Source: an uncultured Clostridia bacterium (GTDB lineage: Bacteria; Bacillota; Clostridia; UMGS1883). From it: a stretch of DNA of 64,000 nt. A program made the position numbers and the translations under genes. Location: the NCBI GenBank assembly GCA_947630975.1, contig CANRJP010000002.1:1096-65095 (forward strand), given 5' to 3'. Below the pieces are notes generated by a model. It was not told the DNA's origin and did no database searches. It saw only the letters and a list, made by a program, of their open reading frames with translations. Shown here piece by piece: positions 6,445-56,580 of the stretch. Positions within the stretch are counted from its first letter, which is position 1, and every line of letters starts with the position of its first letter.

Positions 6445-7158
6445 ATGAAAAAGACTCAGAAAATACTGGTGGTCGACGACGACGCCAATATCTGTGAGCT
6501 GCTCAGGCTCTATCTTAAAAAGGAGGGCTTTGAAACGGTGATCTGCTCCAACGGTGAAAAGGCGCTTGAGGAGTTCGCCGCCGAGCAGCCCGACCTGGCC
6601 ATACTCGACATAATGATGCCGAAGGTTGACGGCATGACGGTTTGCCGCGAGATACGAAAGACCAGCAATATGCCCATCATTATGCTTACAGCCAAGGGCG
6701 AGACCTTCGATAAGGTGCTGGGGCTTGAGCTGGGAGCCGACGACTATATGGTCAAGCCCTTCGAGGGCAAGGAGCTGGTGGCCCGTGTCAAGGCCGTCCT
6801 TCGCCGAAGCGAGGTTCAGAAGGAGGAGAGCGAGGAAAAGATCATACGTTATCCAAATATCGTTATCAACCTCACCAACTACGAGCTCACGCTTGGCGAC
6901 AAGTCCTTTGACATACCGCCGAAGGAGCTGGAGCTGCTGTACTTCCTGGCAAGTCACCCCAACCGGGTGTTCACAAGGGAACAGCTCCTTGAAGATGTGT
7001 GGGGTTTTGACTATTACGGCGACTCGCGGACGGTGGACGTCCACGTAAAGCGGCTCAGGGAAAAGCTGGAGGGCTACGACGACAGTTGGTCCCTCAAGAC
7101 CGTTTGGGGCGTGGGCTACAAGTTCGAGGTCAAGCCGGAGGTGAAGCCTGTTGGGTAA
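6445..7158 (+). CDS. OmpR-family response regulator (CssR-like)
   Basis: Receiver motifs (VVDDD, D at ILDIMMP). C-terminal winged-helix segment (VWGVGYKF). Confidence 0.85.
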   Translation: MKKTQKILVVDDDANICELLRLYLKKEGFETVICSNGEKALEEFAAEQPDLAILDIMMPKVDGMTVCREIRKTSNMPIIMLTAKGETFDKVLGLELGADDYMVKPFEGKELVARVKAVLRRSEVQKEESEEKIIRYPNIVINLTNYELTLGDKSFDIPPKELELLYFLASHPNRVFTREQLLEDVWGFDYYGDSRTVDVHVKRLREKLEGYDDSWSLKTVWGVGYKFEVKPEVKPVG

Positions 7159-8590
7159 AACTCTGTTCACCCGTGTGTTCCTGACGACGGTGCTGGTTAT
7201 TCTTCTGTCCTGCATACTGTCGGCCTCCCTGCTTTACAGTCAGCTTGGCAACTATATAATCAGAACGGAGAGCGAGGAGCTGGAGGACGTGGCGGAGCGT
7301 GTGGCGGAGATAACGGGCCAGTTTATTGACGACAGCTCGGCCCAAAAGTGGCTTTTCAGGCACATCGAGACCCAGAGCTTGAACAACCGCTGCACCATAC
7401 TTGTTATGAATACCAACGCCGAAATAGTTACCATGGCCGGCGGCAGCGAATTCATAGACGTGGACAAACTGGGCAAGGGCCTCATAAGCAAGGCGCTGAA
7501 GGGCGAAAGCACCAGCGGAATAGTCAACGACGAGGCCGGCGTCGCCAAAAACACCTTCGTCTGTACGGAACCGATTTACACCGAATACAACGGCGGTTCC
7601 CTGATACTGGGAGCGGTGGCGGTCTGCAAGCCCATGCCCCAGATACAGCAGGCCCGGAACGAGGTTATGGGGCTGCTGATAACCTCCCAGTCCATCGCGC
7701 TGATGATAGCCTTTCTGTTCAGCTTCCTGCTGGCAAGGAGCATTTCCCGCCCCATAAGCCAGCTCAATTCCGCGGCAAAGGCCGTGGCCTCCGGCGACTT
7801 CACTAAAAAAATAGAGCGCCGCTCCGAGGACGAGATAGGCGAGCTTATATCCAGCTTCAACTACATGACCGGCGCCCTTAAGGAAATAGACGAGGCCAGG
7901 AGCAGCTTCGTCAGCAACGTCGCTCACGAGCTGAGAACCCCGATGACGATAATCAGCGGCTTTGTGGAGGGCATAATCGACGGAACCATAAGCGAGGACG
8001 AGCGGGATAAGTATCTGAATATAGTGCTCAGCGAGTCCCGGCGCCTTGGCCGCCTCGTCAACGATCTTCTCCAGACCAGCCGCCTCGAAAGCGGCACCGC
8101 CAAGCTGGTGATGAAACAGATAGACATCAACGAAATGCTGCGGAAGGGCGTCATAAGCTATGAAAACGCCATCACGGAGAAAAATCTGGACGTGGAGGTG
8201 GAGTTCAAGCGGGAAAACTGCTACGCCGTAGGCGATGAGGACTCCATTTACCGCGTGGTAATGAATCTGCTTGACAACGCAATAAAATACGCTCCCGAGG
8301 GCGGACACATAAAGGTGAAAACCTCCGAGACCGTGCGCAAGGTGGAGGTCAGCATCGAAAACAGCGGCGAGGGCATCAGCGAAAGAGATCTGGCTCATAT
8401 TTGGGAAAGATTTTATAAGACTGACAAGAGCCGCGGCATGGATAAGCGGGGCGTCGGTCTGGGACTTTATCTGGTAAAGACCATAATCAACCAGCACAAC
8501 AACCGCATTTGGGCCGAGAGCAAGGAGGGTGAGTATACGAGGTTTACCTTCACTCTCGATAAGCCCGGCATTACCGGTGTGAAAAACTAA
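7151..8590 (+). CDS. sensor histidine kinase (HAMP-HisKA-HATPase), CssS-like
   Basis: TTG start overlapping the response-regulator stop. H-box VAHELRTPMT. N/G boxes (NLLDNAIKY, GVGLGL). Two TM segments. Confidence 0.85.
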   Translation: MGKTLFTRVFLTTVLVILLSCILSASLLYSQLGNYIIRTESEELEDVAERVAEITGQFIDDSSAQKWLFRHIETQSLNNRCTILVMNTNAEIVTMAGGSEFIDVDKLGKGLISKALKGESTSGIVNDEAGVAKNTFVCTEPIYTEYNGGSLILGAVAVCKPMPQIQQARNEVMGLLITSQSIALMIAFLFSFLLARSISRPISQLNSAAKAVASGDFTKKIERRSEDEIGELISSFNYMTGALKEIDEARSSFVSNVAHELRTPMTIISGFVEGIIDGTISEDERDKYLNIVLSESRRLGRLVNDLLQTSRLESGTAKLVMKQIDINEMLRKGVISYENAITEKNLDVEVEFKRENCYAVGDEDSIYRVVMNLLDNAIKYAPEGGHIKVKTSETVRKVEVSIENSGEGISERDLAHIWERFYKTDKSRGMDKRGVGLGLYLVKTIINQHNNRIWAESKEGEYTRFTFTLDKPGITGVKN

Positions 8591-8600
8591 ACCGTATTAA

Positions 8601-8780
8601 GGCAATACCGCACAAAGACCGCTTTAGAGCTTTGTACCCATCTTGCTTGCATCTTTTCCGACGTATCTTACGAAAACTCCTTGAAATACGACAGTATTCC
8701 TTCGTCGTTTTCGTAATTCCGTCAAAAAATCTGCGGCGCAATATGGGCACAATCTCTGTGCGGTATTACCTTAAAAAGTA
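8601..8780. repeat. 180-bp segment bounded by a 17-bp perfect inverted repeat (GGCAATACCGCACAAAG / CTCTGTGCGGTATTACC)
   Basis: Seen directly. It contains an inner IR CTTACGAAAAC / GTTTTCGTAA. Confidence 0.5.
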
Positions 8781-8895
8781 TTGACATATTTTTTAAAACA
8801 AGTTTAAAATGAAGTTCATATCTGTGTAATAATTGTATTCTATAATTATAGCATAATAATCAAAAGGTTATAAAAAAAGGAAAGGATGATTTTTT

Positions 8896-10185
8896 ATGAC
8901 GGATTATAATGAATTTAATTGGAATGAAGAAGAAGGCCATGCGGCGGAGCCTCAGCCTGTCTCTACTCAACTGTACACCGAAAACGTACTTCGGCCAAAG
9001 AACAGTAAGAAGAAAAAGGGCGGCGCGAGGCTCGCGGTCGGAGTTATCTGCGGTGCGCTTGCGGGAAGTATTCTTTCCACAACGCTTGTGCTTGGAGCGT
9101 TCTCCATCAATAATAAGAACGGAAAGGCCACAATGTTCGAGTCAAGCCGCAAGGACGTGATCAACACCACCCAGGTCAGCACCGTTGTCGGCAGCGATAA
9201 GGGCGGGGAATTGACCACCCGTGAAATCGCGAGAATGGTAGGCCCCTCTGTGGTGGGCATTTCCTGCACGGTTCAGTACCAGAACAACTTCTACTTCTTT
9301 GGCGGCGGCACCCAGACGGCGGTGTCCAGCGGCAGCGGCGTAATAATCAGCGACACCGGACACATTGTCACCAACTACCACGTCATTGACGGCGGCAGCG
9401 ATATAAAGGTAAAGTTCAATAACGGCGACGAGTACCCCGCAACTCTTGTGGGCGGCGATGAGGAGTCCGACCTTGCGGTGCTCAAGATCGACCCCGTGGA
9501 CGGTATGACCGTGGCCGTTATGGGCGACAGCGATTTGGTAGAGGTGGGCGACAGGGCCATCGCCATCGGCAATCCCCTTGGCGACGAGCTTTTCGGCACC
9601 ACGACCCAGGGCATTATCAGCGGTAAGAACCGTACCGTCACCGTTGACAACCGTCAGATGACTTTGATTCAGACCGACGCGGCCATTAACAACGGCAACA
9701 GCGGCGGCGCCCTCATCAACGCCTACGGCGAGGTTATCGGCATCAACAGCGTGAAGATTTCCAGCAACATCACTTCCAGCGGCAGCACCGTTGAGGGATT
9801 GGGCTTCGCCATTCCCATCAACGAGGTAAAGAGCGTTGTCAACGACCTCATCAATTACGGCTATGTAACCGGCAAGCCCCTCATCGGTCTGACCGTCCAG
9901 CCCATCACAAATGAGATGGCTCTGTATCTGCCTGTCGACCACGGTCTGTATGTAATGGGCGTTACCGCCGGCAGTGCGGCGGAAAAGGCCGGCATCCAGC
10001 GCGGCGATATAGTTATCTCCTTCGACGGACAGGAGGTACGGACAAATACGGAACTCAACGCCTTGAGAGATAAGCATAAGGCCGGCGACGAGGTTGAAAT
10101 GGTTATCGACCGCAACGGCGAGCGCCTGACTATCAATCTCACTCTTTCGGAGGACAGCTCCGCAAAGACAAAGCAGCAGCAATAG
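8896..10185 (+). CDS. htrA: HtrA/DegP-family serine protease with C-terminal PDZ domain
   Basis: Trypsin-like catalytic triad context (HVI, D, GNSGGAL). PDZ region. N-terminal TM anchor. Confidence 0.85.
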   Translation: MTDYNEFNWNEEEGHAAEPQPVSTQLYTENVLRPKNSKKKKGGARLAVGVICGALAGSILSTTLVLGAFSINNKNGKATMFESSRKDVINTTQVSTVVGSDKGGELTTREIARMVGPSVVGISCTVQYQNNFYFFGGGTQTAVSSGSGVIISDTGHIVTNYHVIDGGSDIKVKFNNGDEYPATLVGGDEESDLAVLKIDPVDGMTVAVMGDSDLVEVGDRAIAIGNPLGDELFGTTTQGIISGKNRTVTVDNRQMTLIQTDAAINNGNSGGALINAYGEVIGINSVKISSNITSSGSTVEGLGFAIPINEVKSVVNDLINYGYVTGKPLIGLTVQPITNEMALYLPVDHGLYVMGVTAGSAAEKAGIQRGDIVISFDGQEVRTNTELNALRDKHKAGDEVEMVIDRNGERLTINLTLSEDSSAKTKQQQ

Positions 10186-10369: not shown

Positions 10370-10379
10370 GGGGGGGGGG
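10370..10379. repeat. G10 homopolymeric tract abutting promoter elements
   Basis: CTCGGGGGGGGGGTATAAT, immediately 5' of the TTGACA(10390)-17-TAAAAT promoter. Confidence 0.8.
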
Positions 10380-10389
10380 TATAATTTCG

Positions 10390-10418
10390 TTGACAAATTT
10401 AATTCAACATGGTAAAAT
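10390..10418 (+). promoter_or_regulatory. putative promoter TTGACA-17-TAAAAT for the low-GC surface-protein gene
   Basis: Consensus -35 with an exact 17-nt spacer, ~150 nt upstream of ATG 10571. Confidence 0.35.
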
Positions 10419-10570
10419 TATAGTGTATATTTTTGTACGCGGCACAGTTCGGCAAGGCGCGTCCCCGGTAAGCCGGAGGTCGACCGAAACCCCGGCGCCG
10501 CCCCGCTGTGACCGGCCGCGCGGCAAAATATACAAAAAATTTTAAATTCTTTTCAAGGAGGAAAAAAATT

Positions 10571-13500
10571 ATGAACGTAAAAAAGATTCTGTCTTTTGCC
10601 GTGGTTCTGGCCATGGTACTGACAGTAGTTCCCACGTTTGGGCTGGTTGCAAGCGCGGCGGATGAACAAGTCATATACGACCTTAACAGCTATGACTATA
10701 CAGGCGAAGTTCTAGTCGATAATTATGGCTTGACAAGCGTGGGGCATGTAAGGCTTAATGAGAAGAACTGGCAAAAAGGCGAGTGGGGTGATTATGGAGA
10801 CGGTAATGGCCAAAGCACATTGACATTCTTTAAAAATACAGCCAAAGGTGCAGGCAATGGTGTAACCGAAGTTGCTACATTTAATAATGCTGCCAATAGC
10901 CTTGACGCCGGTAAGATAGTAATTGATTTTAAATTTGCGTCAAGACAGACTTCTGATGACAACTACATGACGTGGTATTTTAAAGACCTTGACGGCAACA
11001 GTTTTGCTCGAATCTTCTGGGATACAGGAACCGGCAAAGGCAATCCTATTCCGGATATGCCAAATGCCACCGCCAACTTTGGTATTGGTACTACACAGTA
11101 TATAGTTAACTATGGTGAAGCGACTAGCCGTGACCAGGTTCTTGCACTTCGCGATGTGGCCTTCCGCATTGAGGCAGTCAAGGGTGATGACGGTTATACC
11201 GTTACATACTATAAAGACGGTCAAGTGCTTGGTACGTCCGAAAAAGTCGATAATATCAACGGCATTTCAAATATAACCGCTGATATAGGAGAGTATGGTA
11301 CTCAGTGGGGCGGCATGGGCGTTTATGACCTTAAAATTACAGCATCCGATTTTGCAACAGCATCTACGGTAAATTCTGTTAAAAAGGCTCTTGATGAAAT
11401 AGAAGTTGCAGCTCAGTCCAAAGGAGAGAAGATTGAGCTTGCAGATTCCGTAAATGACGGTCACACTGATTTTGATGTAACCTGGACTTCTGACAACGAG
11501 GAATTTGTCGATTCGGAAGGCAATGTTACTGTCAGTGATGTTGTTACCGTTGCGAATCTTACGCCGAGCACCACATTTGATGGAGAAACCGTAAAAGGTA
11601 CTTCTAAGAAAGTCGTTGTATTCCCCGCGTCCCGCGCAGGTAAGGAGTATACTACTGAGTCTGCTATTTATAGTATTGATGGGGAAAACCAGATATCCAA
11701 CGGCAGTTTTGAAGGTGATGAAAACATTAATTTGACAGATTGGAAATCGCATATCAATGAAGATACAAACGGTGCTATATATCCTTTGACAACTGATATT
11801 ACTACCATACCCGACGGTAAATATGCCTATGGTGCAAGATGGGGCGATGGTGTAACTGATAGCGCTGCTAAGAAGGGTGATAAGGATTGTACAATCTGGA
11901 CATTCTTCCCTGTTAGCGCCGGATTGAATTACTTCTCTTTCTATGGAAAATATCTTTGCAACAACTATACAGGTGCTAAAATTTATGCGTATTTCTCTGA
12001 AACCGATACACATGATAGTTTAAAAGAACCTGCTTCGACACTTGATCAGCTTAAAACAATAGAACTTAATACGGAATGGAACAGGTATGAGTACATATTT
12101 GATTCTGAGAAGGATGGATATGTAGTATTTGTTGCTTATAGTCTTAATGAATGGGCCAATGGCAACAGCAACAATCCTGCAAATGCCGGAGCTTGTTTTG
12201 ATAACTTTGAGCTTTATAAAGCCGAGCAGGTTACCGAGGAGCTCACAAAGGTTGAGGAAGTTAAACCCATCAACATAGGTAACGGTACGGATATAAGCAC
12301 ACTACTTCCCAAGACTCTTAAAGGTACATATTCCAAGGGAACCGTTAGGGATGTTGACGTTACATGGAATATACAGGGTCTTGACTTTACAAATAATGCC
12401 GCTGAACCAAAGAAAATTACTGTAACCGGTACAGTAACTGACGGTAGCGTTACTCTTAATCCTAAAGTTGAAGTAACCGTTTATTACTCTTTTGAAATCA
12501 GCGGTGAAAATGCTAACGGCCATGGTCAGTATGATACTAAGAAGGCCATTACTTTCCCTGCTGTGGCCACTGACAAGCTCGCCGTTGAGTACGATGTTGT
12601 CTTTACTAAGTTTGGCGATGCCTGCATTCAGATTTGCGACCCCACAAAGGTAAATGATAACTTTGGTAATGGCTGCCAAGTTGGTCTTGGTGTCGATGCC
12701 GCAGGCGGATTCCGCCCCGTTAACGGTAATGGAACAGGTGGTAGACCTGATGGCGTTACGGACATAACAATCCTTACAATGAAACTTGGTAAGACTTATC
12801 ATGTCACTGAAAATATTGATGTTAAGACTCAAAAGTATTCCGTTTCCGTATATGAACCCAATGGTGAATATGCTGCCAATACTGAATTTGGTTTCCGTGG
12901 CAACGCTGATCAAGTCGGTGTAATGTATCTGTTTGACAATCAGGGTGAGGCTGATTTCGTTGTCTCTAATCTTAAGGGCGTATATGGGACAATCGATGAT
13001 AAGATGGAGACTTGGGATGTTACCGTCAATTATGTGACAGAAAGCGGCGGCAATGCTGTTAATACTGTTAAGAAGAGAGTAATTAAGGGCGGCGACGTTT
13101 CCTTCGACGCTTATGAGTACCGTGAAGGCGCCAAATTCTATAAGGCTGAGCCTCAGACTTATACCGGTGTTACTGCCAACAAAACTGAGGAAGTTGTACT
13201 CGAAAATGACGACTCCAAGATTCTTTCTTCCGCAGATTTCTCTTACAACTTCAGCAAGAACGAGGTAATTTGGGCCGGCGATAATAATTTTAATAGTGCT
13301 GAAAAAACCGGTACGATTTCCATAGGCTGGGGTAATTTCCGCGAGACGATTATGGCTTATAAACTGCCCGAAATTACCGACAAGCAGATGATAAAATCTG
13401 CGGTTCTTAATACCACCGCAGGTTTTGTTTCCGGTACAGAAGGTAAAGGCGAGTATAAGGTTTATGCTATTGATCCCAGCTATGTTGATGTGGCTGGAGG

Positions 13501-14530
13501 CACTATGAAGGGTTTGCCTGGATTTGATGAAGTACGTGAAGATGTAAAGAACGATAAAGGTGATGTAACAGAAGCCAAAGCCCTTCAATGGAGCGCTCGT
13601 CATGCTGTACTTAATGAACTTAAGGCCGTTGAGGTAGCCTCCATTACGGTTAAAACCAATGACACTCCTGCTATAACTCTCGACCTCACTAAGGTTAAGG
13701 ATTTTGCGGTCAAAGATACCCTTGCTCTCCTTATACTTTCAGGAAATCAGGTTTATACATACAGCGCTACAACGGATAAATTCCCGTTCCTGTCTGATGT
13801 TGAAACCATAGACATCCCCGAGATTCCCACTATCGAGGCCAAGCTTAGTTGGAACGGTACGGCTTTCACTATCGACTATGTTCCCACGACCGAGGTAACT
13901 CCCGTTGAGGGCGCGACCTACGCCGTAGAGGTTAGCGATGGCGAGAAGACGCTTGAGGGCGGCGCATACGTACCTTCCAAAGATGCGGGCGTCGGTATAG
14001 TTCCCAATGACACCAACCGCATTTACTCCGCTACTTCCACCGTTACCGTCAGCGATGTAGTATTTAAGGCTGAGACCGCTGTTAAGGCCGGTATCTACGG
14101 TCTTGTTATGGACGCTATCGTAAACAGCACGCTTGACGGCGAGATTAACGCCGAGCAGCTTACCGTTGTGAACGAGGTTCTTAAGAACGGTAATATTCTT
14201 CTTACCGCTGATGAGGAGGGTACGCTTAAGCTCACCGAGGCTGCCGATAAGGTTATGACCCTTGAGGGTGACACTATCACTCTTACCGAAAAGGCCGTTC
14301 AGCTTGGCCTCAGGTTCACCACTATCGGCGTCGGTACGGATGCCGCGACGGCTCCTGTTGCTACAGTAAGTGATGACGGCAAGAGCATTACCCTTCCCGA
14401 TGGCGTGACCACCGCCGAGGCTATGGTTCTTTCCCTTGATTCCGTATACCTTGAGTTTGTTCCCACCGAAATGGCCGACGTGGACGCCGACGGCGCCGAC
14501 GCCGTTCAGGACTTCATCCCTGAACTTTAA
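10571..14530 (+). CDS. large secreted surface/adhesin-like protein with CBM_4_9-like carbohydrate-binding module and Ig-like domains
   Basis: ATG at 10571 after AAGGAGG. Signal peptide MNVKKILSFAVVLAMVLTVVPTFGLVASAAD. A CBM-like module (ISNGSFEG...CFDNFELY). GC (~42%) and codon usage differ clearly from the ~60% GC neighbours. Confidence 0.75.
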   Translation: MNVKKILSFAVVLAMVLTVVPTFGLVASAADEQVIYDLNSYDYTGEVLVDNYGLTSVGHVRLNEKNWQKGEWGDYGDGNGQSTLTFFKNTAKGAGNGVTEVATFNNAANSLDAGKIVIDFKFASRQTSDDNYMTWYFKDLDGNSFARIFWDTGTGKGNPIPDMPNATANFGIGTTQYIVNYGEATSRDQVLALRDVAFRIEAVKGDDGYTVTYYKDGQVLGTSEKVDNINGISNITADIGEYGTQWGGMGVYDLKITASDFATASTVNSVKKALDEIEVAAQSKGEKIELADSVNDGHTDFDVTWTSDNEEFVDSEGNVTVSDVVTVANLTPSTTFDGETVKGTSKKVVVFPASRAGKEYTTESAIYSIDGENQISNGSFEGDENINLTDWKSHINEDTNGAIYPLTTDITTIPDGKYAYGARWGDGVTDSAAKKGDKDCTIWTFFPVSAGLNYFSFYGKYLCNNYTGAKIYAYFSETDTHDSLKEPASTLDQLKTIELNTEWNRYEYIFDSEKDGYVVFVAYSLNEWANGNSNNPANAGACFDNFELYKAEQVTEELTKVEEVKPINIGNGTDISTLLPKTLKGTYSKGTVRDVDVTWNIQGLDFTNNAAEPKKITVTGTVTDGSVTLNPKVEVTVYYSFEISGENANGHGQYDTKKAITFPAVATDKLAVEYDVVFTKFGDACIQICDPTKVNDNFGNGCQVGLGVDAAGGFRPVNGNGTGGRPDGVTDITILTMKLGKTYHVTENIDVKTQKYSVSVYEPNGEYAANTEFGFRGNADQVGVMYLFDNQGEADFVVSNLKGVYGTIDDKMETWDVTVNYVTESGGNAVNTVKKRVIKGGDVSFDAYEYREGAKFYKAEPQTYTGVTANKTEEVVLENDDSKILSSADFSYNFSKNEVIWAGDNNFNSAEKTGTISIGWGNFRETIMAYKLPEITDKQMIKSAVLNTTAGFVSGTEGKGEYKVYAIDPSYVDVAGGTMKGLPGFDEVREDVKNDKGDVTEAKALQWSARHAVLNELKAVEVASITVKTNDTPAITLDLTKVKDFAVKDTLALLILSGNQVYTYSATTDKFPFLSDVETIDIPEIPTIEAKLSWNGTAFTIDYVPTTEVTPVEGATYAVEVSDGEKTLEGGAYVPSKDAGVGIVPNDTNRIYSATSTVTVSDVVFKAETAVKAGIYGLVMDAIVNSTLDGEINAEQLTVVNEVLKNGNILLTADEEGTLKLTEAADKVMTLEGDTITLTEKAVQLGLRFTTIGVGTDAATAPVATVSDDGKSITLPDGVTTAEAMVLSLDSVYLEFVPTEMADVDADGADAVQDFIPEL

Positions 14531-14548
14531 TGAAGGAGGATGATTTAA

Positions 14549-14728
14549 ATGAAAAAATTTAACACACCCGAAATCAATTCCGTTGAGCTTAACGCCGTCG
14601 AGGCCGTAATGGATTCCATGCTGGTTAAGTTAGACGCAAACAGCGTCGGAGGTAAGGTTATCAGGTACAGCATTACCGACGACGACCGCGAAGAGAGCGA
14701 TAAGCAGAAATATTGGTCCGGCAAGTAA
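14549..14728 (+). CDS. small ORF (59 aa) translationally coupled behind the surface-protein gene
   Basis: ATG 14549 lies 10 nt after GAAGGAGGA. It ends at TAA 14726-14728. A terminator follows. It falls below the ORF-track length cutoff. Confidence 0.4.
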   Translation: MKKFNTPEINSVELNAVEAVMDSMLVKLDANSVGGKVIRYSITDDDREESDKQKYWSGK

Positions 14729-14746
14729 TTTAAAAAACGGATATTG

Positions 14747-14795
14747 AAAAACAGCCTCCTATGGAAGAAATTCTATAGGAGGTTTTGTTGTGCCG
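14747..14795 (+). terminator. intrinsic terminator (CAGCCTCCTATGG...CTATAGGAGGTTTTGTTGT)
   Basis: Hairpin followed by a T-rich run after the small ORF. Confidence 0.45.
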
Positions 14796-14857: not shown

Positions 14858-14899
14858 TTGACAAATTTTTATTAGTATGCTAATATTAGTATGCTAAAT
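14858..14899 (+). promoter_or_regulatory. promoter TTGACA-17-TAATAT overlapped by tandem near-palindromic operator ATTAGTATGCTAAT x2
   Basis: Hexamers and a 14-bp direct repeat (14871-14884 and 14885-14898), each internally pseudo-palindromic (TTAGTA/TGCTAA). They lie 22 nt upstream of the MarR ATG. Confidence 0.4.
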
Positions 14900-19008: not shown

Positions 19009-19192
19009 ATACTAATCCCAATTAAAAGCGTCTAATAAAGCCTTCTCCTTGAGGAGAAGGTGGCACGAAGTGCCGGATGAGGTGTAGGATGCGAAGCATC
19101 CGTTATACGTTTACAGTTACACTAACGCCGCCTGTGGCGGCTACACCTCATCAGTCGGCTTCGCCGACAGCTTCCCCTCGAGGGGAAGCCTT
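19009..19192. repeat. structured repeat element B sharing the 5' terminus (TACTAATCCCAATTAAAAG) with family A
   Basis: Terminus matches family A. Dense hairpins: CCTTCTCC/GGAGAAGG, GGCAC-GAA-GTGCC, GATGAGGTGTAG...CTACACCTCATC, CTTCCCCTC/GAGGGGAAG. Confidence 0.5.
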
Positions 19193-19290
19193 TTTAATCT
19201 GTCATTGTTACCGTAATAAATTCGCATATTTATGTTTTTAATTTGAGGTTAGTATTATACCACTCTTTCATTCTATTTTGTAGTTCTTAT
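19193..19290. repeat. 85-bp flank module (ATCTGTCATTGTTACCGTAA...AGTATTATACNACTCTT), copy 1
   Basis: Also present at 23222-23300, directly after copy 1 of the 530-bp element. Confidence 0.5.
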
Positions 19291-40808: not shown

Positions 40809-40844
40809 ATATGTGTATTATATGTGTATTATATGTGAAACTGA

Positions 40845-41060
40845 ATAGGCTGCGGGTGCCGGGCGTTCGCCAAGGCGAAAAGGGCCCGGTGAAAAGGGAA
40901 ACAGGTGAAAGTCCTGTACGAACTCGTCACTGTAATTACGGAGCCGGGAAGGAATATGTCACTGACCCTTCGGGGTTGGGAAGGCCCTTCCAAGCGATGA
41001 TGTATAAGCCAGGAGACCTGCCCGCCGCCGGTACGCGGAGCTTCGGCTCCAATGCCACGA
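40845..41060 (+). ncRNA. cobalamin (AdoCbl) riboswitch
   Basis: GGTGCCGGG...AAGGGAA.CAGGTGAAA.TCC...GTCACTG core and B12-box AAGCCAGGAGACCTGCC at 41007-41023. Sits 5' of a B12 transport/biosynthesis operon. Confidence 0.75.
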
Positions 41061-41157: not shown

Positions 41158-41577
41158 ATGAACGAAATAAAAGACGGAACATATACCGTCGACGTAGATC
41201 TTAGCGGCGGCAGCGGACGGGCAAAGATCGAAAGCCCGACGGAGCTTACTGTAAAGGACGGAGAAATCAAAGCCAAAATTTGTTGGGACAGCCCCAGCTA
41301 TGATTATATGGAAATCGGGGGCAGGGAGTATTATCCGGTCAATAAAGAGGGCAATTCGGTGTTTGTCATTGACGCGGAGCTGGACAGGGAGCTTTCGGTC
41401 AAGGCCGAGACCGTTGCCATGAGCAGGCCCCATATGATAGATTACACCTTGTATTTCGACTCGGCTTCACTGCGCGGGAGCGGCGGCGCGGCGTATGCCG
41501 TATGCGGCGCCGCGCTTGCGGCGATCGCCGCTGCCGCAGTTATAGTTTTAAGGATAAGGAAAAGGCATGAAAAATAA
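41158..41577 (+). CDS. hypothetical C-terminally TM-anchored protein (paralog A), first gene after B12 riboswitch
   Basis: ATG after the terminator. The 5' extension in the ORF track overlaps the riboswitch. Single C-terminal TM helix plus basic tail RIRKRHEK. Paralogous to 45380-45922. Confidence 0.55.
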   Translation: MNEIKDGTYTVDVDLSGGSGRAKIESPTELTVKDGEIKAKICWDSPSYDYMEIGGREYYPVNKEGNSVFVIDAELDRELSVKAETVAMSRPHMIDYTLYFDSASLRGSGGAAYAVCGAALAAIAAAAVIVLRIRKRHEK

Positions 41578-42715
41578 GCTCGTCATAATTTTTTTGATAA
41601 TTTTAATAATTTTGTCAGGCTGCGGAAAAGAGCCGATGGCTCCGGCTTTGCCGGACAAGGCGGAGGAATTGCCCGGCCTGACCTTCGCCGAACGGGAGGA
41701 ACTCCTCTACGCCGACCAATTCGCCATCGACCGCTATGAGGACGGGTACTCCCTGATACATATCGCGGACGGAGAAAAATATCTTGTGGCGCCGGAGAAC
41801 GGAAAAATCCCCGACGGCCTCGCCCCGGAGATAAAAGTTGTCAGGCGGCCTGTAAGCAACGTTTACATGGCGGCCACGGCGGCGATGGATCTGTTCGACG
41901 CTCTTAACAGAGTGGACGCGGTGCGCTTTTCTTCGGTCAAGGCCGACGGCTGGTACATAGACGGGGCGAGAGAGGCGATGGAGCGGGGAGAAATGCTGTA
42001 TGCCGGAAAATACAGTCTGCCGGATTACGAGCTGCTTCTCTCGGCGGGGTGCGGCCTTTCCGTACAGTCCACCATGATATATCACGCGCCGGAGGTAAGG
42101 GAAAAATTGGAGGAGCTGGGTATAACCGTGTTTGTCGACCGCTCCAGCTACGAAAGCCACCCTCTCGGCCGCTGTGAGTGGGTGAAGCTTTACGGAGAAC
42201 TGTTGGGGGAGAGCGCCTTGGCCGAAAAGCTGTTTGACGAACAAAAGTCGTATCTTGAAAGCCTCGGCCCCGCCGACGGCGGAAAGACAGCCGTCTGCTT
42301 TTACATTAGCGGCGGCGGACGGATAGTGACCCGCAGGGCCGGGGATTACGTTTCGAAAATGATTGAGCTGGCCGGAGGCAGAAATATCCTTTCCGAGCCA
42401 GGTGGGGACGGCGCTCTTTCCACCGTGACCATGGAGCCGGAGGAGTTTTATTCAAAGGCGAAGGAAGCGGACGTGATTATTTATGACGGAGCGATTACCG
42501 GCGAGATCGGCAGCGTTGACGAGCTCATATCAAAAAATTCCCTGCTGGCGGACTTCAAAGCGGTAAAAAACGGCGATGTCTGGTGTACCGGCAAGAGCTT
42601 TTTTCAGGGGACGATGAGCGTCGGCGAGACAATATCCGAACTCAATATGATTTTTACCGGCGGCTCCGGGGAGTTGTCCCATTTTTCTAAATTAAAAGGC
42701 GGCGATGCCCCTTGA
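41567..42715 (+). CDS. btuF: ABC transporter substrate-binding lipoprotein (BtuF-like, cobalamin/siderophore family)
   Basis: Lipobox ILSGC. Class III SBP architecture. Position in the riboswitch-controlled operon. Confidence 0.75.
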   Translation: MKNKLVIIFLIILIILSGCGKEPMAPALPDKAEELPGLTFAEREELLYADQFAIDRYEDGYSLIHIADGEKYLVAPENGKIPDGLAPEIKVVRRPVSNVYMAATAAMDLFDALNRVDAVRFSSVKADGWYIDGAREAMERGEMLYAGKYSLPDYELLLSAGCGLSVQSTMIYHAPEVREKLEELGITVFVDRSSYESHPLGRCEWVKLYGELLGESALAEKLFDEQKSYLESLGPADGGKTAVCFYISGGGRIVTRRAGDYVSKMIELAGGRNILSEPGGDGALSTVTMEPEEFYSKAKEADVIIYDGAITGEIGSVDELISKNSLLADFKAVKNGDVWCTGKSFFQGTMSVGETISELNMIFTGGSGELSHFSKLKGGDAP

Positions 42716-43713
42716 GACGTTTAAAATTCAAGACAGCGGCTGTATTCGCCGGGCTGGCCGCTCTGTCTCTGGTTCTTTTGGGGGCCAATCTCTTTATCGG
42801 CAGCGTCAGGCTTTCCGCCGTCGAGACGGTCGGCGGCCTTTTCTCCGGCGACGCGATAATATGGAAGATAAGGCTCCCAAGAGCTGTTGCGGCCATTCTT
42901 TTGGGCGGAGCGCTGGCCCTGTCGGGATACCTGTTGCAGACCTTTTTCAACAATCCGATCGCCGGCCCCTTTGTGCTTGGAGTCAGCTCGGGCGCCAAGC
43001 TGGCCGTGGCTCTGACAATGATAGCCGCCGCCGGAGCCGGACGGGCGTTGAACTCCTTTTCCACGGTGGCCGCAGCCTTTGCCGGATCCATGCTCTCGCT
43101 GGGATTTATTCTGCTTGTTTCGCGAAAGGTGGGACGGGTGAGCCTGCTTGTGGTCTGCGGCGTTATGATAGGCTACATCTGCTCGGCGGCGACGGATTTC
43201 GCGGTGACATTCGCCGGAGACGCGGACATAGTCAATCTGCGGGACTGGGCCATGGGCAGCTTTTCCGGCACGGATATGGACAGTGTGGCGGTCATGGCGG
43301 CGATAGTTCCGGCGGCGTCGGTTTGCGCGTTTTTGCTCTCCAAGCCGATAGGCGCTTACCGCTTGGGCGAGGGCTATGCGAGAAGCTCGGGCGTGAGGGT
43401 GGGGCTGCTCAGAGCGGCGCTCATAATCCTGTCGGGACTGCTGGCGGCCTGCGTCACCGCGTTTGCCGGGCCGGTGTCCTTTGTGGGCATAGCCGCGCCC
43501 CATATCGTGAGGCTGCTGTTGGGCACATCGAAGCCCACGGTGCTGATACCCGCCTGCTTTTTGGGAGGAGGGATATTCTGTTCGGCCTGCGACCTTGTGG
43601 CCCGCACGGCTTTTGCTCCCACCGAGCTCGGCATCAGTACGGTGACGGCGATTTTCGGTGCGCCGGTGGTAATTGGGATAATGCTTCGGCGGAAGAGGGG
43701 TGAAGCCGTGTGA
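42712..43713 (+). CDS. btuC: FecCD-family ABC permease (BtuC-like)
   Basis: ~9-10 TM segments and FecCD family signatures. Confidence 0.8.
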   Translation: MRRLKFKTAAVFAGLAALSLVLLGANLFIGSVRLSAVETVGGLFSGDAIIWKIRLPRAVAAILLGGALALSGYLLQTFFNNPIAGPFVLGVSSGAKLAVALTMIAAAGAGRALNSFSTVAAAFAGSMLSLGFILLVSRKVGRVSLLVVCGVMIGYICSAATDFAVTFAGDADIVNLRDWAMGSFSGTDMDSVAVMAAIVPAASVCAFLLSKPIGAYRLGEGYARSSGVRVGLLRAALIILSGLLAACVTAFAGPVSFVGIAAPHIVRLLLGTSKPTVLIPACFLGGGIFCSACDLVARTAFAPTELGISTVTAIFGAPVVIGIMLRRKRGEAV

Positions 43714-44477
43714 ACGATGTCCTCGTTTCGGTTGAAAACCTTTCGGCGGGCTACGGTAAGCCCGTGGCGGAAGATGTGGATTTTGCCGTCAGGGGCGGAG
43801 AAGTGCTCGTCCTCATCGGCCCGAACGGAGGAGGAAAGTCCACCCTATTGAGGACGCTTGCCGGCGAGCTTAAAAAGCTTGGCGGCAAAGTGCTCCTTTG
43901 CGGAATCGACACGGACAGGCTTTCCCCAAAAGAAAGGGCGAAAAGGCTTTCCGTCCTGCTGACCGCCCGGCCCCGCACCGACAGAATGACCTGCCGGGAG
44001 GTGGTCGAGACGGGCCGTTATCCCTACACCGGCCGTTTCGGCGTACTTTCCCGAGACGATAAAAACGCGGTGAAAAGGGCGCTGGAGCTGGCGGGAGTGT
44101 CCGAGCTGTCGGATTGTGACTTCTCGCGGATAAGCGACGGCCAGCGTCAGCGGGTGATGCTGGCGCGGGCCGTATGTCAGGAGCCGGAGGTCATGATACT
44201 CGACGAGCCCACGTCTTATCTCGACATCCACCACAAGCTGATATTTCTCGACAGCCTTCAAACGCTGGCGAAAGAAAAGTCCGTCGCCGTTATTTTGTCG
44301 ATGCACGAGCTTGACCTTGCGGAAAAAATCGCCGACCGGGCCGTATGTATAAAGGATGGCCATGTTTTTCGGTCGGGAACGCCGGACGAAATTTTTAAGG
44401 AGGAGGTCCTTCGGGAGCTTTTTGACCTCCCGGATGAACTTTATAAAAAATATTTTGTGAAAGGAAAATCATTATGA
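43710..44477 (+). CDS. btuD: ABC transporter ATP-binding protein (BtuD/FepC-like)
   Basis: Walker A GPNGGGKST, signature SDGQRQRVMLARAV, Walker B ILDEPTS. Confidence 0.85.
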   Translation: MNDVLVSVENLSAGYGKPVAEDVDFAVRGGEVLVLIGPNGGGKSTLLRTLAGELKKLGGKVLLCGIDTDRLSPKERAKRLSVLLTARPRTDRMTCREVVETGRYPYTGRFGVLSRDDKNAVKRALELAGVSELSDCDFSRISDGQRQRVMLARAVCQEPEVMILDEPTSYLDIHHKLIFLDSLQTLAKEKSVAVILSMHELDLAEKIADRAVCIKDGHVFRSGTPDEIFKEEVLRELFDLPDELYKKYFVKGKSL

Positions 44478-45376
44478 AAAAGAGAACCGCATTGGCCGCG
44501 GCCCTTGCCGCGATTCTGACCCTTGGCGGCTGCGCGTCAACAAAGACCGCCGGAGATGTTGAAAAGGAGCCCGAGACCAAAACCGCCGACAAACCGGTCA
44601 TTCTCGTGGTAAGCTTCGGCACCAGCTATAACGACAGCCGTGACAGGACGATTGGGGCCATCGAAAACGCCATCGCCGCCGCCAATCCCGATTACGAGGT
44701 GCGCAGAGCCTTTACAAGCCAGATAATAATCGACAAGCTTAAGGAGCGGGACGGCCTTGAGATAGACAATGTGGAAGAGGCCCTTGACCGCCTTGTTGCC
44801 GACGGCGTAAAAGAGCTTGTCGTCCAGCCGACCCACGTCATGAGCGGCTTTGAGTATGACGATTTGGCCGCCGCCGTTGAGGAATACAGGCCCGATTTTG
44901 ACAAGGTCGCGATGGGTAAGCCTTTGCTTACCTCCGACGGGGATTATACGAGAGTGGCGTCCGCGCTCATGGAAGCCACCGAGGAGTATGATACGGAGGA
45001 TACGGCCATTGTGTTCATGGGTCACGGCACGGAGCACGAATCCAACGGTGTCTACACCAAGCTTCAGGAAACCTTCAGTCAGGCGGAGGCGTACAATTAT
45101 TTTGTCGGCACCGTCGAGGCTACTCCCGGCCTTGAGGACGTTATGTCGAACGTTATTCTGGGCAATTATCCCAAGGTGGTATTGGAGCCCCTGATGGTCG
45201 TCGCCGGCGACCACGCCAACAACGATATGGCGGGCGACGGCGAAGATTCGTGGAAGTCCGCCATGGAGTCGGCGGGCCTCGAGGTGGAGTGTCTGCTGCG
45301 CGGCATGGGCGAGATCCCCGCCATACAGCAGATATATGTTGACCACGTTGCCGACGCGATAGCCTCGATGGAGTAA
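44474..45376 (+). CDS. cbiK: CbiK-type sirohydrochlorin cobaltochelatase homolog with lipoprotein signal peptide (extracytoplasmic)
   Basis: Close motif-by-motif similarity to Salmonella CbiK (VVSFGTSY, FMGHG, MVVAGDHANNDMAGDGEDSWK). N-terminal lipobox LTLGGC. Confidence 0.8.
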   Translation: MKKRTALAAALAAILTLGGCASTKTAGDVEKEPETKTADKPVILVVSFGTSYNDSRDRTIGAIENAIAAANPDYEVRRAFTSQIIIDKLKERDGLEIDNVEEALDRLVADGVKELVVQPTHVMSGFEYDDLAAAVEEYRPDFDKVAMGKPLLTSDGDYTRVASALMEATEEYDTEDTAIVFMGHGTEHESNGVYTKLQETFSQAEAYNYFVGTVEATPGLEDVMSNVILGNYPKVVLEPLMVVAGDHANNDMAGDGEDSWKSAMESAGLEVECLLRGMGEIPAIQQIYVDHVADAIASME

Positions 45377-45379
45377 AAG

Positions 45380-45922
45380 ATGAAAAAAATATCAGCGTTT
45401 ATCTTTTTACTTTTCATTTTTGCGCCGTCGGTCTTTGCCGCCGATGAAGCCGCCTTATACGGCAAAGACATAAAGGACGGCGTATATCAAATAGAGGTGG
45501 AGTCCAGTTCCTCGATGTTCCGCGTCGTCGGCTGTGAGCTGACCGTAAAAGAGGGCGAAATGACCGCCCTCATGACCCTGAGCGGCACCGGATATGAAAA
45601 GCTGTTCATGGGCACCGGCGAGGAGGCCGCCTCCGCTCGGGACGGCGAGTACATATATTTCGAGGAGGACAGCCAAGGCAAATATACTTACAGCGTTCCG
45701 GTAGAAGCGCTGAACACGGATATTTCCTGCGCGGCATTCAGCATACGGCGTCAAAAATGGTACGACCGCACGCTTGTATTCAAAGCCGACACTCTGCCCG
45801 AGGGAGCCGTCGGCGCCTCCAAACCTGTGCCGCTGCCTCTGACGGTAACGGCGGTGCTTGTTATTGCCGCGTCCGCTTTTGTTCTGATTATGGAAAGGCG
45901 GCGGAGCCGGAATGAAAACTGA
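45380..45922 (+). CDS. hypothetical secreted, C-terminally TM-anchored protein (paralog B)
   Basis: Signal peptide and C-terminal TM plus basic tail ERRRSRNEN. Shares IKDG.Y...V.....ELTVK[DE]GE and downstream blocks with 41158-41577. Confidence 0.55.
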   Translation: MKKISAFIFLLFIFAPSVFAADEAALYGKDIKDGVYQIEVESSSSMFRVVGCELTVKEGEMTALMTLSGTGYEKLFMGTGEEAASARDGEYIYFEEDSQGKYTYSVPVEALNTDISCAAFSIRRQKWYDRTLVFKADTLPEGAVGASKPVPLPLTVTAVLVIAASAFVLIMERRRSRNEN

Positions 45923-46553
45923 AAATTCCTCTCCCACGGAGATAGAACGGCGAAGCATGGAAATCATCGAGGCGGAGCTGGGCCCGACGCCGGAGCTTTC
46001 CGCCCCGGAAAGGGCGGTGCTCAAACGTGTCGTCCATACCACGGCGGATCTCGATTACCGCCGGAACCTTAAGTTTTCCGACGACGCCGTGGAGCTTGGC
46101 CTTGAGGCGCTGAGGGCGGGGGCGGTCATCGTAACCGATACGAACATGGCTCTCGCGGGCATAAGCAAGCCGACGCTTAAGGCGCTCCGCTGCGAGGCGG
46201 TCTGTTACATGGCCGCCCCGGAAGCGGCGGAAAGGGCCGAAATGAACGGAACCACCCGAGCCTCCGCCGCGATGGATATGGCGGCGGAGACATACGAAAA
46301 CAGAAACGTCATATTCGCGGTAGGCAACGCTCCCACGGCTCTCCTTCGGCTCTGTGAGCTGGCGGAAAACGGCGGTATAAGCCCCGCCCTTGTTATCGGC
46401 GCTCCGGTGGGATTTGTAAATGTGGAGCGCTCGAAGGAGCGCTTAACAAGGTCGGGACTGCCCTATATTGCCGCCATGGGCCGCAAAGGCGGCAGCGCGG
46501 TGGCGGCGGCGGTCTGCAACGCGCTTTTGTATATGCTTTACCGCAGGGAGTGA
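45912..46553 (+). CDS. cbiC: cobalt-precorrin-8 methylmutase
   Basis: CbiC/CobH family length and motifs (VIVTDTNM, VGNAPTAL). Confidence 0.85.
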   Translation: MKTENSSPTEIERRSMEIIEAELGPTPELSAPERAVLKRVVHTTADLDYRRNLKFSDDAVELGLEALRAGAVIVTDTNMALAGISKPTLKALRCEAVCYMAAPEAAERAEMNGTTRASAAMDMAAETYENRNVIFAVGNAPTALLRLCELAENGGISPALVIGAPVGFVNVERSKERLTRSGLPYIAAMGRKGGSAVAAAVCNALLYMLYRRE

Positions 46554-46557
46554 CGCC

Positions 46558-47697
46558 ATGCCGGAGAGTTATGTATTCAAAAACGGCAAGCGCCTGCGCC
46601 GAGGCTATACCACCGGCTCCTGCGCCGCCGCCGCGGCGGGAGCGGCGGCGGAAATGCTGCTGACCGGTAAAACCGTCGGGAGCGTTCGGCTGCGGGTCCC
46701 GGCGGGAGAGACCCTCGAGCTTGAAATTTTGGAGCCGGAGATCGGCGGGGATTACGCCGCCTGTTATGTGAGGAAGGACGCCGGCGACGATCCGGACGTG
46801 ACGGACGGAATTTTGGTCGGCGCAAAGGCGGAAATTATCCCCTCCGGAATTGAGATAGTCGGAGGAGAGGGCGTGGGACGGGTAACAAAGCCCGGCCTTG
46901 ACCAACCGGTGGGGGCGGCGGCCATAAACTCCGTGCCCCGAAAAATGATAGCGGAGGCGGCGGCCACAGCCTGCGAGGCCTTGGGCTATGAGGGCGGGAT
47001 AAGGATCACCGTTTCCGTCCCCGGCGGAGAGGAGCTTGCGAAAAAAACCTACAATCCGCGCATGGGTATCGTGGGCGGGATTTCGATAATCGGCACCACC
47101 GGCATTGTGGAGCCCATGAGCACGGCCGCCGTGATCGAAACGGCCCGCGCGGAAATGCGTATGCGCCGGGCCGAAGGGGCGGAAACCCTCCTGCTCACGG
47201 TCGGCAATTACGGCAGGAGCTTTCTGGCCCGTGAACTGCCGCTGGCCTTTGACAAAAGCGTCAAATGCGGGAACTTTATCGGCGAGGCCCTTGATTCCGC
47301 CGTCGAGCTGGGATTTTCCGGCGCACTCATCGTGGGCCACATAGGCAAGCTTGTGAAACTGGGCGCGGGCATAATGAACACCCACTCTTCCGTTGCCGAC
47401 GGGCGCATGGAGGTGCTCGTGACCTGCGGCCTGCTGGCCGGAACAGAGTCGGAGACGCTTAAAAAGATCCCCGGCTGCGCCACTGCGGACGCGGCTCTCG
47501 CCCTCCTTGACGCCGACGGGACAAGGGAAAAAACAGCCGCCCTGCTTATGGAACGGGCCGGATATTACCTCGACGCGAGGGTGAAGGGTGAAATAAAAAC
47601 GGGCGCGGTGATGTTTTCGGACAGGTTTGGAGTCATAGGCAGGACTGACGGAGCGGAAGAACTGGTTGAAAGGATCGTGAGGGAGAACAATGGTTAA
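46558..47697 (+). CDS. cbiD: cobalt-precorrin-5B C1-methyltransferase
   Basis: GYTTGSCAAAA N-terminal motif. Confidence 0.85.
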   Translation: MPESYVFKNGKRLRRGYTTGSCAAAAAGAAAEMLLTGKTVGSVRLRVPAGETLELEILEPEIGGDYAACYVRKDAGDDPDVTDGILVGAKAEIIPSGIEIVGGEGVGRVTKPGLDQPVGAAAINSVPRKMIAEAAATACEALGYEGGIRITVSVPGGEELAKKTYNPRMGIVGGISIIGTTGIVEPMSTAAVIETARAEMRMRRAEGAETLLLTVGNYGRSFLARELPLAFDKSVKCGNFIGEALDSAVELGFSGALIVGHIGKLVKLGAGIMNTHSSVADGRMEVLVTCGLLAGTESETLKKIPGCATADAALALLDADGTREKTAALLMERAGYYLDARVKGEIKTGAVMFSDRFGVIGRTDGAEELVERIVRENNG

Positions 47698-48445
47698 TTT
47701 TGTCGGAGCGGGCTGCGGCGCTTACGACCTTATAACGGTGCGCGGCGCACGGCTGCTCGGCGAGGCTGACGTGATAATTTACGCCGGTTCGCTGGTGAAC
47801 GAGGAGCTTCTCGGTTACTCGAGACCCGGCTGCGAGATATATAACAGTGCGCTGCTGACGTTGGACGAGGTCGTTGATATTATCGCGGAGGCCGAAAAAA
47901 AGGGCGGGAGAGTTGTTCGTCTGCACAGCGGCGACCCGTGTGTTTACGGAGCCGTCCGTGAGCAGATGGACAGACTGCGGGAGTTGGGCATAGCTTTTGA
48001 GGTCTGTCCCGGCGTCAGCTCATTCTGCGGAGCGGCGGCGGCCCTGAAAGCGGAGTACACCGTTCCCGGCGTCAGCCAGAGTGTTATAATTACCCGCATG
48101 GCGGGAAAAACTCCAGTGCCGGAGGGGGAGAGCATAGCCGCTCTCGCCGCTCACGGAGCGACAATGGTGATTTTTCTCAGCGCGGCCATGCTTAAGGAAT
48201 TGGCGGCGGAGCTGATAAAGGGCGGATATTCTCCCAAAACTCCGGCGGCCATAGTGTATAAGGCCTGCTGGCCCGACGAAAAAATCCTCCGCTGCACCGT
48301 GGGCACTCTGGCGGAAACGGCGGAAAGAGAAGGCGTGAAAAAGACGGCCCTCATTTGCGTGGGCAATTTTCTGGACGGGGATCATGAGCTTTCAAAACTC
48401 TATGACCGCAGCTTTACCACGGAATTCAGAAAGGCGAAAATATGA
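47690..48445 (+). CDS. cbiF: cobalt-precorrin-4 C11-methyltransferase
   Basis: TP_methylase fold (VGAGCGA.DLITVRG). CobM length. Confidence 0.85.
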   Translation: MVNFVGAGCGAYDLITVRGARLLGEADVIIYAGSLVNEELLGYSRPGCEIYNSALLTLDEVVDIIAEAEKKGGRVVRLHSGDPCVYGAVREQMDRLRELGIAFEVCPGVSSFCGAAAALKAEYTVPGVSQSVIITRMAGKTPVPEGESIAALAAHGATMVIFLSAAMLKELAAELIKGGYSPKTPAAIVYKACWPDEKILRCTVGTLAETAEREGVKKTALICVGNFLDGDHELSKLYDRSFTTEFRKAKI

Positions 48446-56563: not shown

Positions 56564-56580
56564 ATCAAGGAGTGAAAATT

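Follow-up and report, generated by a model that had tools for sequence, protein, structure and literature searches.

A conserved cassette linking a modular secreted protein to a 59-amino-acid open reading frame in uncultured rabbit-gut Clostridia

Introduction

Why would a Clostridia genome carry a low-GC islet that encodes a very large secreted protein with no evident means of staying on the cell and, immediately behind it, a second protein of only 59 amino acids (aa)? The question is raised by a 64,000-nucleotide (nt) stretch of an uncultured Clostridia bacterium (contig CANRJP010000002.1 of assembly GCA_947630975.1; hereafter, the window), in which a gene for a 1,319-aa secreted modular protein is followed by a small open reading frame (ORF). 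An earlier note, made from the letters of the sequence, took the low GC content as a sign of horizontal acquisition and proposed examining whether the two genes co-occur in other genomes.

We are highly confident that the pair is a real and conserved cassette, and the family to which it belongs is known only from a few uncultured rabbit-gut Clostridia. Our overall explanation is a tentative one that falls somewhat short of probable: the large proteins would be surface glycan-binding proteins that carry a C-terminal retention or assembly module, and each would be made together with a small dedicated partner.

Results and discussion

A self-contained and conserved two-gene unit

The large gene (10571-14530; GC 0.448; GC content at third codon positions [GC3], 0.42) starts with an ATG at 10571, stops with a TAA at 14528-14530, and is preceded by AAGGAGG at 10555-10561. 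Like all cassette features described here, it lies on the + strand. Eighteen nucleotides, previously counted as 19, separate its stop codon from the ATG of the small ORF (14549-14728), which encodes a 59-aa protein of a new family, and this gap holds the ribosome-binding site (RBS) GAAGGAGG at 14532-14539. The bicistronic unit is ended by an intrinsic terminator at 14753-14790, in which a 14-bp stem (14753-14784) is followed by a T-run. Spacing aside, the ORF table and the sequence confirmed what the earlier note had said of the coordinates and layout of the large gene, small ORF, and terminator, as well as the strength of the RBS. The window region is one self-contained copy, with promoter, leader, large gene, small gene, and terminator, and its neighbors are htrA and a marR-ABC operon.

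Among related loci, we distinguished 12 cassettes (win/L015/L016, L001-4, L005, L006, L007, L012, L017/18, L019/20, L021, L022, L023, and L024, where "win" is the window copy). In all 12 placed cassettes, a gene whose product ends in the same type of C-terminal module, named here for its terminal DFIPEL, has a homologue of the small ORF 12-26 nt downstream. The co-occurrence that the earlier note had proposed as a test was therefore found at every cassette. An AGGAGG-type RBS precedes the small ORF in each of the 10 cassettes compared, and a terminator-like hairpin lies 3' of it in most of the other cassettes. The genes flanking the unit change at every locus (ThiF/rpsB, MatE, PNPOx/metH, AsnC, SNO, and others). 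The large proteins encoded before it are 369 to 1,537 aa long, with a constant signal peptide and C-terminal module around a middle that is a mosaic of modules in varying combinations. The small ORF, which is always translationally coupled to the large gene, tracks the C-terminal module rather than the N-terminal modules, and this is true even for the 369-aa protein.

Neither Pfam, NCBIfam, PDB, nor the searchable literature holds a description of the cassette, its C-terminal module, the mini-protein, or their linkage. Multi-copy, modular, recombining surface-protein genes are already known; the novelty lies in the C-terminal module, in the mini-protein that obligatorily accompanies it, and in the strict linkage between the two.

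A modular secreted protein with a constant C-terminus

The large protein begins with a Sec signal peptide (10571-10657; MNVKKILSFAVVLAMVLTVVPTFGLVASA, with predicted cleavage before A according to the AxA rule), which is its sole hydrophobic segment. This peptide is nearly identical family-wide, with the consensus M[NR][VI]KK[IV]LSLAVVLAMVLTVVP.FG...ASA. The only Pfam domain recognized in the window protein is a bacterial Ig-like Big_4 domain (PF07532; aa 578-623, 12302-12439; 26.9 bits, cut-off 22.1), which is also present in the paralogues P0009, P0011, and P0012. The Ig-like part of the domain description in the earlier note thus stands above the cut-off, whereas the CBM_4_9 part holds only by way of the paralogues. 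The region concerned (aa 369-554, 11675-12232; NGSFE...FDNFELY) is a beta-sandwich module that resembles CBM_4_9 but is divergent; it gave no PF02018 match in Pfam even at E<=10, and a profile search against PDB returned a weak match to a GH10-CBM (E 0.82). Three of the five homologous paralogue regions do match PF02018 (best E 1.2e-7), so the assignment reaches the window protein solely by transitivity. Across the paralogues, the Pfam domains found are Laminin_G_3, CBM_4_9, and Big_4.

The large protein had been described as secreted but lacking an LPXTG motif, S-layer homology (SLH) domains, or an evident anchor, and our motif and Pfam scans agree. We found no [LNSI]PxT[GASN] motif and no C-terminal hydrophobic helix, and the tail contains no K or R, so that no sortase signal can be assigned. 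The SLH domain (PF00395) matched neither the window protein nor 7 paralogues; SLH proteins are encoded elsewhere in the related metagenome-assembled genome (MAG) introduced below.

What all large proteins of the family share, down to the 369-aa minimal one, is a C-terminal module of ~240 aa. In the window protein it spans aa 1076-1319 (13796-14527) and consists of an FN3/Ig-like sandwich, an alpha/beta subdomain, and a tail. The module ends in a V..EF..T motif, an acidic stretch of 15-20 residues, and a final DFIPEL (or FTPEL/FIEEL); in the window this conserved acidic tail occupies 14462-14527 and reads PTEMADVDADGADAVQDFIPEL-COOH, with the invariant V..EF..T motif before it. The tail has an isoelectric point (pI) of 4.05 and no basic residue, and it is predicted to be disordered, with a predicted local distance difference test score (pLDDT) below 50 in AlphaFold2 (AF2). 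No Pfam, NCBIfam, or PDB entry matched the module by sequence or profile. An AF2 model built from an 8-sequence alignment was of moderate quality (pLDDT 63; predicted template modeling score 0.60), and a Foldseek search with the module against PDB gave no significant match, with no E value under 0.006 and generic FN3 sandwiches as the sole hits. The V..EF..T motif, which is the most conserved of the module, and the tail are left unplaced in the AF2 monomer, which would fit a linear motif that binds a partner. One further protein, P0013, carries the N-terminal module of the window protein but ends in a Cu_amine_oxidN1 domain; C-terminal modules are therefore interchangeable.

The smallest family members, found by a profile search with the C-terminal module, have only 369-373 aa and comprise a signal peptide, an uncharacterized domain of ~120 aa, and the C-terminal module. 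At L024:4589-11317, such a member (P0042, 369 aa) stands within a three-gene unit, between a 1,798-aa protein and a 64-aa homologue of the small ORF. The 1,798-aa protein carries Dockerin_1 (28.3 bits; cut-off 22.9), fn3, and a mucinase-like Peptidase_M60 domain. The minimal member thus directly follows a dockerin protein, in the place of an anchoring scaffoldin, which suggests a role in surface retention for the C-terminal module.

A small soluble protein under constraint

The 59-aa protein is mildly acidic, as had been noted (pI 4.9; net charge -2), and is soluble, with neither a hydrophobic segment nor a signal peptide. Its homologues have 52-64 aa and share 32-45% amino acid identity at their most divergent, and both the frame and the family motif, MKK(x)F..P...(13)...M.S...W.G, persist to ~32% identity. 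At the N-terminus, M1-K2-K3-F4-P7 are invariant; near the C-terminus, W56 is invariant and G58 nearly so, and the center varies more. Pairwise ratios of non-synonymous to synonymous substitution (dN/dS) are mostly 0.1-0.4, with synonymous sites close to saturation, and the family-wide pN/pS of the center is 0.49. These values indicate purifying selection on the small ORF.

No match to the small protein was found in Pfam, NCBIfam, PHROG, or PDB. A 5.8-billion-protein collection contained relatives in 5 clusters, and an exhaustive profile search recovered ~10 at 50% clustering; P0018, P0023, P0025, and other long multi-repeat proteins that also matched the profile were set aside as sums of weak repeat matches rather than relatives. 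The small proteins are not members of WXG100 (PF06013; ESAT-6-like helical hairpins of ~100 aa whose WxG is central), given their length of 52-64 aa, a W-x-G that lies 1-9 residues from the C-terminus, the lack of a Pfam match, and also the Sec signal peptide of the client protein. By eye, the N-terminus of the small protein (KFNTPEI..SVEL.AVEAVMD) resembles the end of the large protein (DSVYLEFV.TEMAD...DFIPEL), but alignment of the two profiles with hhalign was not significant (E 0.26), and we therefore dropped tail mimicry as evidence.

Origin of the low GC content

The compositional anomaly reported in the earlier note is real, although its contrast of 42% with 60% was somewhat overstated: the gene has 44.8% GC, the flanking genes 54-58%, and the window 54.7% overall. 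At third positions, the large gene (GC3 0.42) has the minimum among window genes, at about -6 standard deviations (sd) relative to 40 other plausible genes of the window (mean 0.697, sd 0.045). Its GC1 (0.53) and GC2 (0.39) are normal, so the contrast is confined to third codon positions. Seven paralogues have a similarly low GC3 of 0.34-0.54, compared to 0.65-0.78 in their neighboring genes. Along the family genes, GC3 is 0.25-0.45 in the variable middle, whereas the C-terminal module has 0.5-0.7 and the small ORF frequently reaches the level of the host.

Among species-representative genomes, the family is present solely in Lapin-008, an "uncultured Clostridia bacterium" MAG with at least 5 cassettes (L006, L007, L012, L017, and L024). 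Housekeeping DNA is 88-96% identical between this MAG and the window, including htrA with its two-component system, asnC with its neighbors, and the MatE/Polysacc_synt transporter gene adjacent to L006. The genes for the response regulator, histidine kinase, and HtrA-like protease (window 6445-10185) are syntenic with L024:15028-18614 at 88-89% identity, and in both genomes a family cassette lies a few kb from htrA, in a different arrangement. Directly after htrA, at the site of the window cassette, Lapin-008 has none, and the window has none at the loci of the MAG cassettes. The cassette is accessory: its number and position differ between close relatives. Of the hallmarks of a genomic island, presence/absence polymorphism and atypical composition are both found here (loci differ; GC3 -6 sd).

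The cassettes also differ from each other in a patchwise manner. We aligned window 14208-14766 with L005 and L016. Between the window copy and L005, 404 identical nt are followed by ~35 differences in 105 positions inside the small ORF, after which the two are identical again. Between the window copy and L016, the difference is limited to one loop block of the C-terminal module. Judging from these alignments, cassettes exchange short blocks by recombination. Positive selection on the center of the small ORF was considered for the window-L005 block (pN 0.35, pS 0.28) and rejected, as import by recombination explains it better.

Could the islet instead have been acquired recently from a lower-GC donor, with a composition not yet ameliorated? 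This would account for a GC3 ~6 sd under that of the window genes, for the htrA-proximal site that is empty in a relative with 88-96% identity and the differing cassette positions, and for a self-contained unit with its own promoter and terminator. However, low GC3 is common to all paralogues, at least 5 of which reside in one genome, and because every paralogue shares it, we take low GC to be a property of a resident recombining family rather than of a one-off import. The conserved ends and the small ORF lie near host GC3, and GC1 and GC2 are normal, which also speaks against a recent import. Moreover, searches of 5.8 billion proteins and of plasmids, phages, IMG/VR, and metagenomes of the Joint Genome Institute (JGI) gave no homologue beyond the lineage, and neither the small protein nor the C-terminal module had any match in scans of the JGI metagenomes. 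The mobility markers integrase, transposase, tRNA, and flanking direct repeats are all absent. A phage, plasmid, or defense origin was likewise rejected, with no notable PHROG match, one meaningless PADLOC match, and no tblastn match in phages or plasmids.

We therefore consider a recent import unlikely. The GC anomaly and the accessory status agree with the horizontal acquisition proposed in the earlier note, whereas the shared low GC3 of all paralogues and the failure to find a donor do not; a single foreign import out of a low-GC donor need not be invoked, is without positive support, and as a claim is only partly supported. The low GC3 could instead be caused by AT-biased drift of the fast-evolving middle, by exchange among relatives, or by selection on expression. 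An islet of this kind, formed by a resident fast-recombining family rather than by foreign DNA, calls for caution with composition-based island callers.

A promoter-adjacent poly-G tract and a structured leader

Upstream of the large gene lies a sigma-70-type promoter (10390-10418; TTGACA, a 17-nt spacer, and TAAAAT, with an extended TG) that agrees with the consensus at 11 of 12 positions. A poly-G tract of 10 residues (10370-10379) ends 10 nt upstream of its -35 hexamer and is a candidate phase-variation tract. Its length is G10 in the window and in L001 (L001:17-26), G11 in L002 (L002:9-19), which is the L001 cassette from another sample, and G9 in L012 (L012:319-327). The poly-G tracts are the only G/C runs of at least 8 in the window and all fetched loci, and two contigs end at such a tract. 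These observations are suggestive of a candidate slipped-strand switch for phase variation.

The promoter is followed by a GC-rich 5' leader of ~150 nt (10419-10570), which includes the AAGGAGG before the large gene. It is closed by an imperfect 29-nt stem in which 10415-10443 pairs with 10515-10543 (minimum free energy -53.5 kcal/mol, z -2.2). No Rfam family matched the leader, and a riboswitch or other known RNA was rejected on that account; a stabilizer of the mRNA and a regulatory leader are candidate roles. The poly-G tract, near-consensus promoter, and leader are common to only three cassettes (window, L001, and L012), and the other cassettes have different promoters.

Two features of the marR promoter on the far side of the cassette were also observed. 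Its -35 and spacer (window 14858-14897) resemble those of the cassette promoter (TTGACAAATTT...), and its region contains two tandem or palindromic copies of TATTAGTATGCTAA, which probably form the MarR operator.

Proposed role of the cassette

The large protein is probably a cell-surface glycan-binding protein, acting as an adhesin or in substrate capture, as its signal peptide and modules suggest. Some of these large proteins may be phase-variable via the poly-G tract. The C-terminal module occupies the architectural place that SLH domains or sortase signals take in other Clostridia and could thus serve in surface retention or assembly. That the small protein is a partner of this module is possible but rather doubtful. 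Were it so, translational coupling would let the same ribosome free the C-terminus of the large protein and then make the small protein, at a ratio of 1:1. The small protein would bind the conserved tail motif or the C-terminal module in the cytoplasm, where it might act as a cap or chaperone that keeps the large protein competent for export, or as an adaptor for assembly.

Several points weigh against this explanation. Surface localization follows solely from the signal peptide and the types of domain present. Because the small protein is predicted to be cytoplasmic and its client is exported, the two could bind only transiently and before export. Each cassette keeps its own small gene, though one general chaperone would suffice. 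The center of the small ORF (window vs. L005) and the loop of the module (window vs. L016) vary independently, so no cognate co-variation is seen. The model of the C-terminal module is of only moderate quality (pLDDT 63). Finally, the N-terminal domain of P0042 was not confirmed as a cohesin, with no Pfam match at E<=1, no PDB match, and an AF2 pLDDT below 35, so that a cohesin there is kept as a positional hint only, from its place behind a dockerin protein.

A comparison with known systems places the family among surface proteins but separates it from each of them. The closest plan is that of Clostridia surface proteins and anchoring scaffoldins (SLH in Acetivibrio thermocellus; sortase in Ruminococcus flavefaciens ScaE), which have the same signal peptide, variable CBM, Ig-like, and LamG modules, and constant C-terminus; the L024 member likewise follows a dockerin-bearing enzyme. 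The family studied here differs in having no SLH, LPXTG, or detectable cohesin, a module unrelated to known anchors, and an obligatory mini-protein. Cargo of the type IX secretion system (T9SS) of Bacteroidota is also built from a signal peptide, a variable body, and a conserved C-terminal module containing a beta-sandwich. However, that module has ~80 aa rather than ~240, our module has an acidic disordered tail and no sequence or fold match, the host belongs to spore-forming Clostridia that lack a T9SS, and T9SS cargo has no coupled small gene. WxL/Csc clusters of Lactobacillales similarly combine a lineage-specific C-terminal surface domain on large proteins with a small accessory protein. 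By contrast, CscD has a signal peptide and LPXTG, neither of which is present in our small protein, and we found no WxL motifs or Pfam match in what is a strict two-gene cassette.

Phase-variable, recombining surface families include Bordetella fim, with its promoter poly-C tract, Neisseria opa/pil, and Mycoplasma vsp/vlp. The cassettes share with them numerous paralogues that have conserved ends and variable middles, block mosaicism, and a promoter-adjacent homopolymer whose length depends on the sample. Unlike those families, there is no arrangement of silent cassettes and an expression site, because each copy has its own promoter and terminator. The coupled small gene also has no counterpart there, and switching in our cassettes is a prediction from sequence. 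Type III secretion chaperones and donor-strand complementation in chaperone-usher pili offer precedents for a small, acidic, signal-less protein that is co-produced with a single exported client and putatively binds a terminal segment of it; here, however, the client is Sec-exported, the partner is far smaller (59 aa), and there is no homology.

A bolder extension of our explanation, which we regard as unlikely though worth stating, is that the DFIPEL-type module and the mini-protein form an undescribed system by which monoderm bacteria sort, anchor, or assemble their surface proteins, carried on recombining, phase-variable cassettes. The mini-protein might, for example, cap the module in the cytoplasm and, after export, be swapped for a wall component or the tail of a neighboring protein, and the cassettes would let gut Clostridia vary their glycan-binding surface. 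If true, this would be a new way for Clostridia proteins without sortase or SLH signals to stay on the surface, and it would add two new protein families, the ~240-aa C-terminal module and its ~55-aa partner, the latter of a type missed by routine annotation. Still, the present impact is limited, since only a few uncultured rabbit-gut Clostridia carry the family, whose functions are predicted.

Other roles for the small gene

The small protein might instead be a cytoplasmic regulator that reports cassette expression, for instance by cross-repressing other cassettes or surface programs. MrpJ and PapX, which repress motility and whose genes stand last, at the 3' end, in fimbrial operons, provide the analogy. 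The small gene likewise closes its operon and is expressed strictly together with the gene for a probably phase-variable surface protein, each genome has several divergent versions of it, and its product has no signal peptide. However, there is no DNA- or RNA-binding domain and no Pfam or NCBIfam match, and a protein of 52-64 aa that is mildly acidic and has no helix-turn-helix is unlikely to bind nucleic acids. Neither is any conserved operator common to all cassette promoters. We consider a regulator improbable, a little more so than the recent import discussed above.

A precursor of a ribosomally made peptide that is post-translationally modified (RiPP) or a pheromone-like peptide was also weighed, in which the N-terminus would be a "leader" and the C-terminal W-x-G-K/W-K-G motif would be matured by an unlinked enzyme. 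The W-x-G-K of the small ORF resembles motifs of RaS-RiPPs (radical S-adenosylmethionine [SAM] RiPPs; the Trp-Lys cross-link of streptide and the WGK of tryglysin), and WGK-type motifs are substrates modified by radical-SAM enzymes (PMC9389541); this likeness is a lead only. The conserved N-terminus and W56/G58 around a more variable center, as well as a size typical of precursors, would fit. Yet within up to 10 kb on each side of ~12 cassettes, the flanks contain no radical-SAM enzyme, YcaO, LanB/C, C39 peptidase, or dedicated exporter, and the gene with the C-terminal module is the sole constant neighbor. Purifying selection extends over the whole peptide, including the center (pN/pS 0.49). 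A double-glycine leader was rejected as well, because homologues do not conserve the Gly-Gly at positions 34-35. The chance that the small ORF encodes such a precursor is slim.

Slimmer still is the case for a polymorphic toxin or bacteriocin with a small acidic immunity protein, comparable to colicins, CdiA-CT/CdiI, or LXG toxins. Gene order, tight coupling, and a small acidic downstream product are as such a pair would have them, but the C-terminus of the large protein, where variability would be expected, is its most conserved part and ends in an acidic disordered peptide. The domains detected include none of a toxin, nuclease, or enzyme, PADLOC and PHROG gave no signal, and variation in the small protein is independent of that in the C-terminal module. 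Lastly, it is scarcely credible that the 59-aa ORF is no real gene but a sequence kept as a 3' untranslated region or for recombination: it is very short and has no database family, but a strong RBS stands at a fixed spacing in 10 of 10 cassettes compared, the frame is kept to 32-45% identity at lengths of 52-64 aa, and dN/dS is 0.1-0.4 with synonymous sites near saturation.

Other features of the window

Two observations lie outside the cassette. At window 19009-19244 (equivalent to L024:14713-14948, 94% identical), a 236-bp intergenic element contains at least 6 consecutive GC-rich hairpins; it is inverted relative to htrA in the related MAG and may be a repeat resembling repetitive extragenic palindromes or a scar of rearrangement. 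Further downstream, a cobalamin riboswitch (RF00174; 122 bits) at 40837-41039 precedes a long series of + strand genes (41158-61068); going by visual inspection of their translations, these appear to form a cluster for transport and cobalamin biosynthesis.

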